From contig CAYOQJ010000079.1 of the NCBI GenBank assembly GCA_964406095.1, forward strand, positions 5,944 through 69,943: 64,000 nucleotides of DNA, given 5' to 3'. This document shows, one piece after another, positions 16,252 to 43,769 of this stretch. Positions within the stretch are counted from its first letter, which is position 1, and each line of letters starts with the position of its first letter. Made by a program: the position numbers and the translations under genes. The stretch comes from an uncultured Lentisphaeraceae bacterium. Its GTDB lineage: Bacteria > Verrucomicrobiota > Kiritimatiellia > RFP12 > UBA1067. Below the pieces are notes generated by a model. That model saw nothing but the letters and a program-made list of their open reading frames with translations, was not told the DNA's origin and searched no databases.

Positions 16252-19200
16252 TTGATAATGAAGAAATTGACAACACTGATTGTTGCCCTGGGTCTCTGTA
16301 CGGTGGCATTTGGCGCGGTGCCTTCCCACTGGGATGGCGGTCGCAATATACCGGTGCACAAGCTAACTTTGCTGGATGAATTTGAGGATACCATTGATCC
16401 GGTCAGCGCAAGTGCTTTACCAGTGAGTACTCGCAACACCTGTGGACAATGCCATGACTACAGCATTATCTCCGGCGGCTGGCATTTTAACAGCTCCGAA
16501 ACAAACGCCTGCCTGGGACGTTTTTCGGAACCCTGGTTCATGATTGACCAACTCAGCGGTTCGCAAATTCCCATGAGTCTGCGTACATGGCCGAAAGTTT
16601 ACAAACCCGAGGATATCGGCATGACCGATTGGGAGTGGGTTTATGCCTTCGGTCGTCACCTGCCGGGCGGTGATATTGCCGAACCGGAGGATATCTATGC
16701 CGAGGGTGGAGAGAATGTACGCTGGGAGGTCAGCGGAAAGATGGAAATCAACTGCTTTGCCTGCCACTCAACCAGCGATCTGTATGATCACAGCGAATTT
16801 GTTCGTCTGGTGAAACGTGAGAATTTCGCCTGGGCTGCATCTGGTGCTTTTGGCCTTGGTAATGTCGAAGGCATGGGATCGCGTGTGCCCGAATATTGGG
16901 ATGCCTCGCGCGGATTTGATCCGGATGACCGCGTGTACAAAGTGCCGCCGCATATCAACTACGATCTCGGACGTTTCGACAGCAAGAGCCGCACAGTGCT
17001 GGAGGTTGGAGAGCCGAGCAGCGAAAACTGTCTTAATTGTCACTCTGTCTCGCAATCGGGAGTCGGCCATCATCAGATTGACGGCGATGTGCATCTGCGT
17101 GCCGGCATGAACTGCAGTGACTGCCACAGCAATGGGCTGGGGCATGATATCGCCCGCGGTTACGAAGGTGAATCCGGAGAGTACAGGGATAAGACCCGTG
17201 CAACTGCCAGTTGCGCAGGCTGCCATGTGATCGGTGACGATACCAAAGCCGGACGTTTTGGCGCACCGGCTCCCGAACATGTTGGGTTTCCGCTGATTCA
17301 TTTTGAAAAGCTGAGCTGCACGGTCTGTCACTCAGGAGTCACAGAGGCTGGCAAGCTGGCTCAGGTGCGCACTTCCAAAGCCAATCGCATGGGGGTTTAC
17401 GGTCGAGCCCGCTGGGTGACACCGGCACCTTTTATACAGGAACCGGTTTTTGTTAAAAACGAACAGGGCGTGATTGAGCCGCATCGTATCAGCTGGCCGG
17501 CCTTCTGGGGCAGACGTTCTGCTGACGGCAGGGAGGTCAAACCGATTAAACCTGAGAAGGTCGGTGAGCTTTGCGCAGATGAGCTGGGAGTTAGAACACG
17601 CCTGGGTGCCTTGCTGGCTACGCTCGCTACCAACCCGAATATTCCGGGGGTGCCGGCACTGGCGATAAACGGCATCTGCTTTGCGGCAAACGCGGACGGG
17701 GTTGCTATGCCGGTTGTGCAGGACGAGAGTATCAAAGGTGTTGCCTTTGTCTATCTGGTTGACGGATGCGATCCGGCAGCGGATTTCACGGGTTTTGATC
17801 CGCTGGCTTCAACCGAGGGTCTTGCGCAATTTCAGGCGGAGAGACACATTGAAAAACTGGAGCAGTTCACCGGATTACTTGGTGATCTTGAAGCTCAGCC
17901 GTTGGCTGAAGGTCGTTACGGGGCAGTGGTTCTCGGCGATCAAATTTATTACAAGACCTATAACGGCTTGACTAACGCTCCGGCGGGAGATGCTCCGCAG
18001 GGTGCCGGTTACTATTTGGACGGCAGCTTTGATTCCATTGTGCACAACTTCGCGCAGCCGGCCCTTCCGATTTATGATCCGACAGCTGGCAGCTCTCAAA
18101 TGACTGACGATCAGTATCGTGTTTTTGATGCGAACCGAAAAAAATTCGAGGAACTCCTTCAGACCTTGGATGCGAGCGAGATGGCTGAAAATCGTTATTG
18201 CGCTATGGTAATAAAAGACCAACTCTTCTATCGTGGCGGAACTGATGCTACCGTGATCAGCACCAACGCTCCTGCCGGGGCTGATGACGGCATGATAGGC
18301 TTTTATATGGATGGTGGGTTTGAGCCGCTGCTCGACGATTATCTGGTTTCCAATGTCGCTGAACTGGCCGACTCCGAGTGCTCACTGACTGAAAGCATGG
18401 TTACGGCTGTGCTCAGAAAACTGACCGCTTCGGGTGAGGTGAATCCGGTTTACGTTGCGCATGGTAAGCTTTGGGGTTTGAATGAAGATGGAGAGTTGAC
18501 CGCCGGTGTGCATGTTGCGGCGGAACCGGTCAGCTGGGCTCTGGGTCATGATGTACGTCCGGCAAGATTGGCGCGTGGAGCAAAACCGGTTAAGTGCGAC
18601 GACTGTCATACCGCCGACTCCGACTTCTTTTTCGCTGATGTCCGTTCGACCGGACCGTTGCTGACCTCCAGTGTGGCGGTTGCCAAGCAAATTGATTTCA
18701 TGCAGCTCAGCGGTGTTTACAACCGTTTATTCGGTTTGACCTTTATGGTGCGTCCGTTGCTAAAAATTTTCCTGTGGCTGGCATTCGGCATATTCATATT
18801 GGTAGCGGTGGGTTTTGCTTCGGTGAGCATTCCCGCTTTGCTGGCGTTGGGTGGTTTGAAGCAGGGGACACCGCGTGAGCAGCTGATGAACAGAATTGAT
18901 CGGATTGCGATGCTTGCGCTAACGGCATCTAGCGGCTATCTGGCACTTTCGGGAGTAACGGGCTGGCTGTTGCACCTGATGACGGGATATTTGCTGGTGC
19001 TGCATATTGTGGCCGGCGGAATCTTTGCACTCTGTTTGCTGACTCTGCTCTGGACCCGTGGTGCTGCGCGGCTTGCTATACCTAGAAAGAGTATGCTTTG
19101 GCTGGCCATGCTGATCCTAGCTGTGGTTGTGATCTTTTCCGCAGTTGCGCCGATGATGACTATTTTCGGCTCGGAGTGGCAGCTTGCGTTGCTCTGGACG

Positions 19201-19266
19201 CACCGTTTGTCCTCCGTGGCGTTTCTGGTTGTCGGGTTGTATACATTGGTGGGTTTCCGAGATTGA
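16252..19266 (+). CDS. Heptaheme c-type cytochrome (periplasmic, about 800 aa) fused to a C-terminal 5-TM membrane domain
   Basis: Signal peptide. Seven CxxCH motifs (CGQCH, CFACH, CLNCH, CSDCH, CAGCH, CTVCH, CDDCH). Five C-terminal TM helices, three of them with His. Confidence 0.75.
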   Translation: MIMKKLTTLIVALGLCTVAFGAVPSHWDGGRNIPVHKLTLLDEFEDTIDPVSASALPVSTRNTCGQCHDYSIISGGWHFNSSETNACLGRFSEPWFMIDQLSGSQIPMSLRTWPKVYKPEDIGMTDWEWVYAFGRHLPGGDIAEPEDIYAEGGENVRWEVSGKMEINCFACHSTSDLYDHSEFVRLVKRENFAWAASGAFGLGNVEGMGSRVPEYWDASRGFDPDDRVYKVPPHINYDLGRFDSKSRTVLEVGEPSSENCLNCHSVSQSGVGHHQIDGDVHLRAGMNCSDCHSNGLGHDIARGYEGESGEYRDKTRATASCAGCHVIGDDTKAGRFGAPAPEHVGFPLIHFEKLSCTVCHSGVTEAGKLAQVRTSKANRMGVYGRARWVTPAPFIQEPVFVKNEQGVIEPHRISWPAFWGRRSADGREVKPIKPEKVGELCADELGVRTRLGALLATLATNPNIPGVPALAINGICFAANADGVAMPVVQDESIKGVAFVYLVDGCDPAADFTGFDPLASTEGLAQFQAERHIEKLEQFTGLLGDLEAQPLAEGRYGAVVLGDQIYYKTYNGLTNAPAGDAPQGAGYYLDGSFDSIVHNFAQPALPIYDPTAGSSQMTDDQYRVFDANRKKFEELLQTLDASEMAENRYCAMVIKDQLFYRGGTDATVISTNAPAGADDGMIGFYMDGGFEPLLDDYLVSNVAELADSECSLTESMVTAVLRKLTASGEVNPVYVAHGKLWGLNEDGELTAGVHVAAEPVSWALGHDVRPARLARGAKPVKCDDCHTADSDFFFADVRSTGPLLTSSVAVAKQIDFMQLSGVYNRLFGLTFMVRPLLKIFLWLAFGIFILVAVGFASVSIPALLALGGLKQGTPREQLMNRIDRIAMLALTASSGYLALSGVTGWLLHLMTGYLLVLHIVAGGIFALCLLTLLWTRGAARLAIPRKSMLWLAMLILAVVVIFSAVAPMMTIFGSEWQLALLWTHRLSSVAFLVVGLYTLVGFRD

Positions 19267-19285
19267 CGGGTGGTTGTCCGGTCTT

Positions 19286-20233
19286 ATGAAGGTTCATAAA
19301 TATGAACACGAAGCGATGTCCACCCGGTTCGAACTGATGATTCGAATCGAAGATGAGCAGATTGCTCAGAGTGCGGCCTGGAATGCATTTCAGAAGATCG
19401 ATAAGCTGGAAAAACTTTTGAGCAGATTTGCGGATGGCAGTGATGTCACGGTGATCAGCCATTTGAGTCCTGGAGAGAGTTACCAGATAGCACCGGAGAC
19501 GTTGGAGTTGCTATTGATTGCCACTGAGGTGTGCGCGGCAACCCGAGGGGCTTTTGATGTGACGGTTGGTGCATTTATGGATTTGCTGCGCGGGGTCAAT
19601 CATCGCTGGCAGGCACTGACTGCGGATGAGTTGCAACAGACATGGAAGGCATGCGGCATGAACCGGCTGATCATCGACAGAGATAACCATCTGGTTGCGG
19701 TGAAACCGGTGCAGGCGGGTGAATTGGTTCCATTGAAACTTGATTTCGGGGCAATTGCCAAGGGTTATGCACTGGATGTGGTGGCGGCAATGTTGAATGA
19801 AGAGTGGGATTTGACAGATTTTCTGGTGCATGCCGGCACCAGCACGGTAATTGCTGCAGGTTCCATGGATGCAATACCAGGATGGCCGGTGACCGTTGGC
19901 GGCGAGTGGCGCACACGTGCCGGGCTTGAGACGGTACGTTTAAAAGTGGGGGCACTCAGCGGCTCAGGATTTGAGGTTAAAGGGGCGCATGTTGTGGATG
20001 TGCGCCGAGGAGTGGCGGCGGTGCAACATCCGGCCGCATGGGCTTATGCCGACAGCGCGGCTGTGGCTGATGCGCTTTCCACCGCGGTATTAGGTATGAA
20101 ATGGCGTGAGATCAAAGAGTCATGCGTTGAAATACCAAACAGCGGCGTACTGACAGTGCGTGAGCAGAGTACTCGTCTTGACCGGTTTAGAGCACCGTTC
20201 AGGGTTTGCGGAAATTTTCCGCCTTTACGGTAG
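19286..20233 (+). CDS. apbE: FAD:protein FMN transferase ApbE
   Basis: ApbE motif DFGAIAKGYALD. Start taken at MKVHKYEHE (19286), because the longer ORF-track start overlaps the cytochrome gene. Confidence 0.75.
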   Translation: MKVHKYEHEAMSTRFELMIRIEDEQIAQSAAWNAFQKIDKLEKLLSRFADGSDVTVISHLSPGESYQIAPETLELLLIATEVCAATRGAFDVTVGAFMDLLRGVNHRWQALTADELQQTWKACGMNRLIIDRDNHLVAVKPVQAGELVPLKLDFGAIAKGYALDVVAAMLNEEWDLTDFLVHAGTSTVIAAGSMDAIPGWPVTVGGEWRTRAGLETVRLKVGALSGSGFEVKGAHVVDVRRGVAAVQHPAAWAYADSAAVADALSTAVLGMKWREIKESCVEIPNSGVLTVREQSTRLDRFRAPFRVCGNFPPLR

Positions 20234-23927: not shown

Positions 23928-24746
23928 TCAATTTTCGGGATCAAAAATTTCTTTTCGTCGATTCAATAGAATCGCCACTCCGATTGCGGCCAGTCCGATA
24001 CTGATCGTCTGACTGATCGACAATGCACCCACGTTGGCACGCGGGTCACCTCGCAAAAACTCAACCATGAATCGCATAAAAGCGTAGGCAATCAGATAGA
24101 TGGCGGATGGCAGACCAAGCTTGCGATAGTGATTCAGAAAAATATAGATCATAGCCGCAAAGATCAGCAGATTGGCTCCTGATTCGATCAACTGGGTTGG
24201 GATAACCGGTAGACTCTGGGCGGCAGTTGGCTCGATAAGTGGCGGATTAGCATTGCATTGTTCGATCCAGGCGGGAGAGTGGGCCGGAAAATGTACACCC
24301 AGAGCTTCGCTTGTTATACGTCCGTAACAGCAGCCATGCATGAAACAGCCGATTCGTCCGAAAGCGTGTCCGAGCGGCAGAACACTGAGAAGTATATCTG
24401 AAACCTCGAAGAATTTAATTTTCTTGAGTTTTATGAAAATCAGAACAAATAACGCGGCTGCGATGAACCCGCCGTAAAACATCAGACCACCCTGGTCTAT
24501 CCGCAGAATTGCGGAGGGGTTGTCGGCGAATTCCACCTGCCAGTGTTCAATCACATAGGCAACTCGGGCACCGCCGATAGAGGCGATCATCATCCCGGTG
24601 ATCAGTGAAGTCAGTTGATCCGCATTACGTCCGCTGCGTTTGCAGAGCCACACCGCCACCTGCCAGGCAAAGAGAAATCCGAGTGCCATACACAGTCCGT
24701 AGCTGTGCAGGGTTATGCCGCCGATTCGCAATAATTCTGAGTGCAT
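23928..24746 (-). CDS. lgt: Prolipoprotein diacylglyceryl transferase
   Basis: Multi-TM profile. Lgt signature-like GRIGCFMHGCCYG. Confidence 0.8.
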   Translation of the reverse strand: MHSELLRIGGITLHSYGLCMALGFLFAWQVAVWLCKRSGRNADQLTSLITGMMIASIGGARVAYVIEHWQVEFADNPSAILRIDQGGLMFYGGFIAAALFVLIFIKLKKIKFFEVSDILLSVLPLGHAFGRIGCFMHGCCYGRITSEALGVHFPAHSPAWIEQCNANPPLIEPTAAQSLPVIPTQLIESGANLLIFAAMIYIFLNHYRKLGLPSAIYLIAYAFMRFMVEFLRGDPRANVGALSISQTISIGLAAIGVAILLNRRKEIFDPEN

Positions 24747-42992: not shown

Positions 42993-43361
42993 TCAGCAGT
43001 TCTCGATTATTCTGACCAGCAAATCTTTGATCAACCCGGACTCTCCCAGATGAGCCCCGATTGTAATCGAAAGTTGTGGGTATAATTTTCCGGCTTTTTC
43101 GAGTGCCGCCGGTATATCGCGAGTGACATGCCGTCCTGAGTTGAGAAAGTAGGGCAGCACCGTTACGCTGGATGCTCCGTCCCGGACACAGGCACCCACA
43201 CCCTCCGTAATTGATGGCTGCGCCATGTCAAGAAAAGCGGCATGTATGATCCCGATACCGTTTTTCCGGGCGGTGTCGCGCAGTTGACCGGCAAGAGCCA
43301 GAACTTCATCATTGGATGCCTGTCGGCGGCTGCCGTGTGCCACTAGCAAAATTGCTTTCAT
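42993..43361 (-). CDS. cbiX: Sirohydrochlorin chelatase CbiX (small form)
   Basis: Motifs [12 protein letters not shown] and [10 protein letters not shown]. About 120 aa. Confidence 0.75.
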
Positions 43362-43769
43362 CGCTGCTTACCTTGTTATTGTTTTTAATCATAATCGGTT
43401 TATGAAAATTCTGAAAGGTAAATGCCACGGAGTGGTGATGACCGTTCTCAGCTTTGGCAATATATTTGGGAATGAAAGCGTGCGGCAGATGACAGTCGAC
43501 ACAGGTTGCGACGATATGATGGCTGGCCTGTTGCCAGAAGTCATACTGCGGGTCCATGATGTGACAGTTTGCGCAGGCGCGAGGATCGGCACGGGCATCA
43601 TCCTTGTTACGGACGTAGAGTTTTGGTGACAGTTTGCGCAGGCGCGAGGATCGGCACTCAGATATGAGAGACCTCCGGCATACCTGAAGGTGTATGCTTT
43701 GGTGCCGATCAGGGCTCCCAGCGCGACGGCGGTGGCACAAATATGTTCGAATCTTGTCACTACTGCCAT
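43309..43769 (-). pseudogene. NapC/NirT/NrfH-family membrane cytochrome c gene, frameshifted by a 65-bp partial duplication and C-terminally short (2 of the 4 hemes expected for the NapC/NrfH family)
   Basis: Frame B holds the TM anchor and [10 protein letters not shown]. Frame A repeats [10 protein letters not shown], then [27 protein letters not shown], which resembles the N-terminal half of NrfH. The two frames are linked by a 32-bp perfect direct repeat at 43561-43592 and 43626-43657. Confidence 0.6.
43561..43657. repeat. 32-bp perfect direct repeat (gtgacagtttgcgcaggcgcgaggatcggcac) x2, separated by 33 bp, inside the NrfH-like gene
   Basis: Read directly from the sequence. Period 65 bp (not a multiple of 3). 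Confidence 0.9.

Follow-up and report, generated by a model that had tools for sequence, protein, structure and literature searches.

We describe here a remnant of the cytochrome gene nrfH that is interrupted by a short repeat-insert-repeat unit in the genome of an uncultured Lentisphaeraceae bacterium. "The window" denotes the whole stretch of 64,000 nucleotides that was analysed. The remnant lies in a housekeeping neighbourhood (rpsA, tyrS, the nqr operon, cbiX, a U32 peptidase gene and ftsZ/ftsA/ftsQ/ddl/murCB) and was compared with the corresponding locus of the metagenome-assembled genome Kiritimatiellae bacterium M55B167 (GCA_018399555.1; loci L006/L010), the only close relative among species-representative genomes. 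The features of the locus are as follows (window coordinates, strand):

42993..43361, minus: cbiX (small sirohydrochlorin chelatase), intact; Pfam CbiX, E = 3e-24
43362..43374, minus: truncation junction AACAAGGTAAGCAGCG, from the DNA alignment with the intact nrfH-nrfA of a relative (L007)
43373..43769, minus: nrfH remnant with TM helix and heme-1 and heme-2 motifs, up to ...PIMIKNNNK; in two frames through a 65-bp insertion
43561..43592, plus: copy 1 of a duplicated 32-bp target ("pseudo-repeat"), an exact repeat; the plus strand reads GTGACAGTTTGCGCAGGCGCGAGGATCGGCAC
43593..43625, plus: 33-bp spacer-like insert GGGCATCATCCTTGTTACGGACGTAGAGTTTTG; clean 65-bp gap in the alignment to M55B167 (L006)
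43626..43657, plus: copy 2 of the duplicated 32-bp target, from the exact repeat and the M55B167 alignment

The nrfH remnant upstream of cbiX

Two overlapping minus-strand ORFs in different frames, 43389-43769 (126 aa) and 43309-43740 (143 aa), both contain the same 10-residue segment, as a first-pass annotation of this DNA had noted. Excision of 65 bp yields a single ORF of 131 aa with two CXXCH motifs and a tail overlapping cbiX; the annotation's account of a gene frameshifted by 65 extra bases, whose repaired product has two heme motifs and a 3' end running into cbiX, was thus borne out. Its assignment of the gene as NrfH/NapC-like could be narrowed to NrfH: the repaired ORF matched TIGR03153 over model positions 2-98 of 138 (E = 1.3e-34; 119.2 bits, below the cutoff of 134.2) as well as Pfam Cytochrom_NNT (PF03264; E = 4e-11), and the N-terminal NrfH homology, including the TM anchor and hemes 1-2, is significant. 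The protein database held 2082 homologs, of which the best intact ones were NrfH proteins of Kiritimatiellae/Pontiella (73-79% identity).

NrfH (TIGR03153) is the membrane tetraheme quinol dehydrogenase of the NrfHA nitrite reductase. The remnant shares its TM helix, hemes 1-2 and a 10-residue region but stops at about model position 98 of 138, and it has two hemes instead of four, substitutions at conserved sites and a frameshift. CXXCH motifs number two in the repaired window ORF, one in M55B167 and a median of four in 118 intact homologs. In the relative with an intact gene, nrfA directly follows nrfH; next to the window remnant nrfA (Cytochrom_C552) is absent and cbiX directly follows. In the alignment with that relative, nrfH homology ceases about 13 nt short of the cbiX start codon. 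The end of the remnant's ORF (43309-43361) is cbiX read in another frame, and the bases directly preceding the cbiX start come from the junction. Judged by these alignments, the window gene is the N-terminal two thirds of NrfH, with hemes 3-4 and nrfA gone. The adjoining cbiX is highly conserved (96.7% amino acid identity to M55B167, dN/dS 0.13), and the stump may have been retained as promoter, leader or ribosome-binding site of the cbiX-U32 peptidase genes.

Elsewhere in the window, a 1004-aa ORF with a multiheme cytochrome c7-like match (16252-19266) adjoins a gene for an ApbE flavin transferase (19184-20233), and positions 31-2202 are part of the gene for a 1229-aa FMN_bind/Fer4_5 (NosR/NapH-like) membrane protein (full gene, L029 5320-9009). 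The multiheme cytochrome/ApbE and NosR/NapH-like genes are possible alternative respiratory modules where nrfHA has been lost at the remnant locus.

Anatomy and reality of the inserted unit

The exact 32-bp direct repeat with a 65-bp period that the first-pass annotation had reported was recovered: GTGACAGTTTGCGCAGGCGCGAGGATCGGCAC occurs twice in the window, at 43561-43592 and 43626-43657. Because the bases neighbouring the two copies differ on either side, the repeat is exactly 32 bp long and the segment between the copies exactly 33 bp. Read on the gene strand, copy 1 codes for (A)DPRACANCH, the heme-1 motif of NrfH. This is the only exact repeat of such geometry in the window; repeat scans of the 64 kb found no second one with comparable geometry, exact or relaxed. 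The 253 kb of DNA scanned held one other repeat-insert-repeat object with such geometry, a genuine CRISPR array (L017 91-520). It lies at the end of a JGI contig (Ga0272449_1004516) from an unrelated organism that encodes a distant NrfH, and it consists of at least six copies of a 36-37-nt repeat, GTCAGAATCATCGAATGCCCGGAAGGGCATTAAGAC, with spacers of 40-46 nt.

Replication slippage, or a tandem copy of 65 bp, had been put forward as the cause of the frameshift. It would produce a direct repeat at a fixed period and a disrupted frame, and pseudogenes that arise in this way are likewise broken by a period not divisible by 3. Here, however, half of the added DNA is foreign. The repeated share of the 65 bp amounts to 32 bp. 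The other 33 bp are missing from M55B167 and resemble neither of the adjoining sequences from which a duplication would have been templated (8/33 and 5/33 identities). Had the whole unit been duplicated, later mutation could not have scrambled 33 bp while sparing every base of the other 32. What was added is a novel 33-bp insert together with a 32-bp target duplication, and slippage was rejected. Gene conversion from a paralog was also considered and rejected, as the insert resembles NrfH in none of its reading frames.

The structure recurs in independent data. JGI metagenome contigs from four different samples (assemblies 3300077563, 3300001533, 3300077522 and 3300077562) span the unit and match the window at every base of the 1083-bp rpsA-cbiX interval (100% identity). 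Short repeats can mislead assemblers, and a Logan contig (SRR2989655_15148; L005) does break at the repeat: its position 1 corresponds to window position 43590, within copy 1. Such a break is consistent with the branching of a k-mer (de Bruijn) graph at a duplicated 32-mer, and repeat collapse or expansion cannot create a 33-bp unique insert. The suspicion of an assembly artefact was dispelled by the four identical assemblies together with the position of the Logan break.

Phase variation, also raised for this gene, found no more support. An allele with another copy number was not seen (the four spanning assemblies being identical), and the 5.8-billion-cluster protein database contained no uninterrupted allele above 83% identity. 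The metagenome contig collection returned only NrfH homologs at 65% identity or less, and the genome contig collection matched M55B167 only. Moreover, a phase-variable or programmed-frameshift gene would, even when repaired, encode a protein that lacks two hemes and its NrfA partner. That the unit is either an assembly artefact or a device of a phase-variable or programmed-frameshift gene is, in our judgement, hardly credible.

The empty site in the sister lineage and the order of events

The M55B167 locus is fully syntenic with the window (dS about 0.17-0.21 in neighbouring genes). It has the identical truncation junction and the same out-of-frame tail, so that the loss of hemes 3-4 and nrfA is older than the split of the two lineages. 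By contrast with the window, it has the 32-mer only once (28/32 identical) and lacks the 33-bp segment, and the alignment gap is a clean 65 bp. Since this site is empty, the insertion is specific to the window lineage and later than the truncation; since the single copy stands without the insert, the event consisted of one insertion with target duplication. The first-pass annotation had proposed that a single copy of the 32-mer in reads or related genomes would point to an assembly error; M55B167 has a single copy, and the doubled structure of the window is present in four assemblies. It is nearly certain that the 65 bp are 33 bp of foreign DNA plus a perfect 32-bp target-site duplication, and that this structure is real and lineage-specific. 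The M55B167 remnant itself is an uninterrupted ORF of 128 aa (L006 10001-10387; JAGYOL010000012.1).

The event can also no longer be called inactivating, as had been proposed, because hemes 3-4 and nrfA were lost before the insertion, the truncation junction being the same in M55B167. The 65-bp insertion is a further frameshift in a gene that was already non-functional. The suggestion of a decaying respiratory gene, on the other hand, held up. Between the window and M55B167, the remnant has a dN/dS of 0.42, compared with 0.03-0.27 in five neighbour genes. At 62 near-invariant NrfH columns the window remnant departs in 6 cases and that of M55B167 in 4, including the heme-2 cysteine, against a mean of 0.95 in intact homologs. 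The latter change, which turned the heme-2 motif of M55B167 from CVDCH into CVDSH, is an independent decay of the same stump. By these measures, both nrfH remnants are decaying. The dN/dS of the remnant is still below 1 (binomial p = 0.016), which may reflect transition bias, or constraint on its 3' part as the leader of cbiX.

The last 170 nt of the remnant before the cbiX ATG (43362-43530, minus strand) are near invariant between the two lineages (dS 0.11), with zero synonymous changes in the tail; in the 5' part of the remnant, dS is 0.36.

Type I-C likeness and the origin of the unit

Type I-C CRISPR arrays have 32-bp repeats and 33-36-bp spacers in Pseudomonas aeruginosa (PMC7761518), 32-nt repeats and 33-36-nt spacers in Streptococcus equi zooepidemicus (PMC11150851), and a 32-bp repeat in Bacillus halodurans (PMC6519985). 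The 32-33-32 geometry of the unit equals one unit of a type I-C array. The target was compared with the repeats of these arrays; the comparison was set up after the 32-bp length had pointed to type I-C, and its comparators come from other phyla and may not resemble the host's own repeat. The identities at the target and the number of window positions that scored as high were:

P. aeruginosa I-C repeat: 19/32; 8 of 127,938 positions (6e-5), two of them being the copies themselves
B. halodurans I-C repeat: 18/32; 22 of 127,938 positions (2e-4)
S. equi zooepidemicus I-C repeat: 17/32; 93 of 127,938 positions (7e-4)
Positions invariant in all three I-C repeats: 14/22; 26 of 127,938 positions (2e-4)

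Control repeats (two of type I-E, two 36-37-nt repeats of Leptospira and that of the L017 array) reached 38-45% identity, with values of 0.14-0.7 after placement correction. The likeness of the target thus appears specific to type I-C, though modest.

The resemblance to the type I-C arrays of P. aeruginosa ST235, B. halodurans and S. equi zooepidemicus extends to similar repeat and spacer sizes and to the G...C termini of the 32-bp target, which is 53-59% identical to their repeats, the identities being concentrated in GGCGCG.GGAT.G..AC. The orientation is ambiguous, since the target matches the P. aeruginosa repeat at 19/32 on the plus strand and at 17/32 on the minus strand. Unlike those arrays, the window unit comprises two repeats and one spacer only and lies inside a coding remnant. 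It also lacks the 7-bp stem-loop of I-C repeats, and the handle ATTGAAAC is conserved at 5 of 8 positions. The pseudo-repeat folds into a weak, off-register hairpin (z = 0.15), as opposed to the 7-bp stem of real I-C repeats, and it matches none of the Rfam CRISPR-DR families. Without the I-C hairpin and handle, the unit is probably inert and probably not processed to crRNA. A bona fide CRISPR array was rejected on account of the two repeats, the weak fold, the lack of an Rfam family and the lack of nearby cas genes.

A sigma-70-like pair, TTGCCA-18-CATGAT (9/12; window 43531-43560, plus strand), ends at the first base of copy 1. It is a consensus match only, located on the strand that gives the 32/33/32 unit its I-C orientation, and the surrounding region is enriched in sigma-70-like matches (7 found, 1.4 expected).

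Pfam searches revealed no cas genes among 27 window ORFs and the genes up to 10 kb past each window end (about 84 kb), and array-geometry scans of the 64-kb window, the flanking 10 kb on each side and the other loci examined found no CRISPR array except that of the unrelated L017 contig. For the 33-mer, no source was present in the window at up to 3 mismatches. Against all fetched loci (blastn-short), its best match was 13 nt long (E = 0.075), and against phage and plasmid collections only chance-level matches were obtained (E of at least 0.3). IMG/VR contained no source, whether the query was the whole 33-mer, either of two 20-mers or any of three wobble-masked patterns. The 22-mer core had zero matches in the metagenome and genome contig collections, whose returns did not include the window locus itself either, so that these collections do not cover the source samples. 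A protospacer with a PAM (5'-TTC for type I-C) was not found in any collection or with any pattern variant, which, given the environmental lineage, is weak evidence against a spacer origin. A literature search for type I-C systems in Kiritimatiellae also found nothing. Within the window, insert positions 13-25 have a 13-nt perfect match on the opposite strand, within a sulfatase gene (24317-24329; E = 0.075), which was judged to be due to chance.

These negative results, and the fact that the pseudo-repeat is ordinary coding DNA, are what would be expected of a process unrelated to CRISPR. For example, filler DNA could have been captured while a staggered double-strand break was repaired, or an integrated element could have been deleted almost completely, leaving two att-like copies with 33 bp between them. 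To our knowledge, no known bacterial transposase or repair pathway yields an exact 32-bp target duplication, the typical length being 2-15 bp. The duplication lies outside that range, and a non-CRISPR process would also have to hit both the repeat and spacer lengths of type I-C and the I-C-specific likeness of the target by chance (p about 1e-4 to 1e-3 for the latter). We therefore consider a non-CRISPR origin, the main rival reading, possible but rather doubtful.

An off-target integration by the integrase of a CRISPR subtype other than I-C would follow the same geometric logic, and the assignment to I-C rests on the lengths and on 53-59% identity to repeats from other phyla. The tested non-I-C repeats, however, showed no special likeness to the target, and 32/33 is the canonical I-C geometry in the arrays cited above (PMC7761518, PMC11150851, PMC6519985). 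Another subtype is an improbable source.

On balance, and by a small margin of confidence, we favour the explanation that a type I-C-like Cas1-Cas2 integrase inserted a spacer off-target by full-site integration and left the unit as a scar, a one-spacer neo-CRISPR. The sequence of events began with an old deletion, which stripped nrfH of hemes 3-4, eliminated the whole of nrfA and fused the remnant to cbiX. Afterwards, in the window lineage only, 33 bp of foreign DNA entered the heme-1 motif, with the 32-bp target doubled around the insert. A 33-bp insert within a perfect 32-bp duplication implies one strand transfer on each strand, 32 bp apart, and subsequent filling of the gaps, and spacer insertion with repeat duplication by Cas1-Cas2 proceeds by such paired strand transfer and fill-in (10.1101/2022.05.30.494039). 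The agent, whose identity we infer, would be the Cas1-Cas2 of a type I-C or closely related system, probably assisted by Cas4, at work at a wrong site. The integrase would attack a 32-bp stretch similar to its cognate repeat at both ends and join a 33-bp prespacer to them; gap repair would then duplicate the "repeat", and the product, a one-spacer neo-CRISPR unit, would persist as a fixed scar. A single event cannot reveal a PAM, a leader or a polarity.

Off-target integration has precedents. Cas1-Cas2 of Pyrococcus furiosus is reported to integrate off-target in vitro (PMC6698737), and spacer integration in vivo at repeat-like non-CRISPR sites of Escherichia coli gives rise to neo-CRISPR loci, as papers citing Nivala, Shipman & Church (2018, Nat Microbiol) report of that study; its natural cases, from two other species, are circumstantial. 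By these accounts, the E. coli type I-E loci share with the window unit a spacer-length insert and an exact repeat-length duplication outside of arrays, forming a single-spacer unit. They differ from it in geometry (28/33, compared with the I-C-like 32/33 of the window). The window unit also arose in nature, has become fixed in a wild population of an uncultured bacterium and can be dated from the empty site in a relative, and the integrase, prespacer and any activity assigned to it are putative. The marks of a neo-CRISPR found here are the exact repeat-length duplication, the unrelated spacer-length insert and the empty single-copy orthologous site.

The history of the host gene is ordinary: an nrfHA operon was deleted and its stump kept upstream of cbiX. 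Even if the integrase reading were wrong, the 32-bp target duplication would still be without a known mechanism. If that reading is correct, which we think somewhat probable, the locus would record the natural, population-fixed birth of a one-spacer neo-CRISPR unit via off-target I-C integration, with the empty site kept in the sister lineage. Off-target spacer integration has so far been shown mainly in engineered E. coli and in vitro, and the natural cases described in the papers cited here are circumstantial. For genome mining, the locus would provide a simple search signature, in which an insert of spacer length lies within an exact duplication of repeat length and relatives have the empty site. 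If the proposed origin is true, CRISPR adaptation leaves heritable insertion scars in ordinary chromosomal genes of wild bacteria and can frameshift them, and the locus would be direct evidence that small insertions and disrupted genes in nature can stem from CRISPR adaptation. It would also illustrate concretely how a CRISPR array could arise from non-CRISPR DNA, and a natural off-target integration with a clean before/after pair in uncultured Kiritimatiellae would be a rare example.
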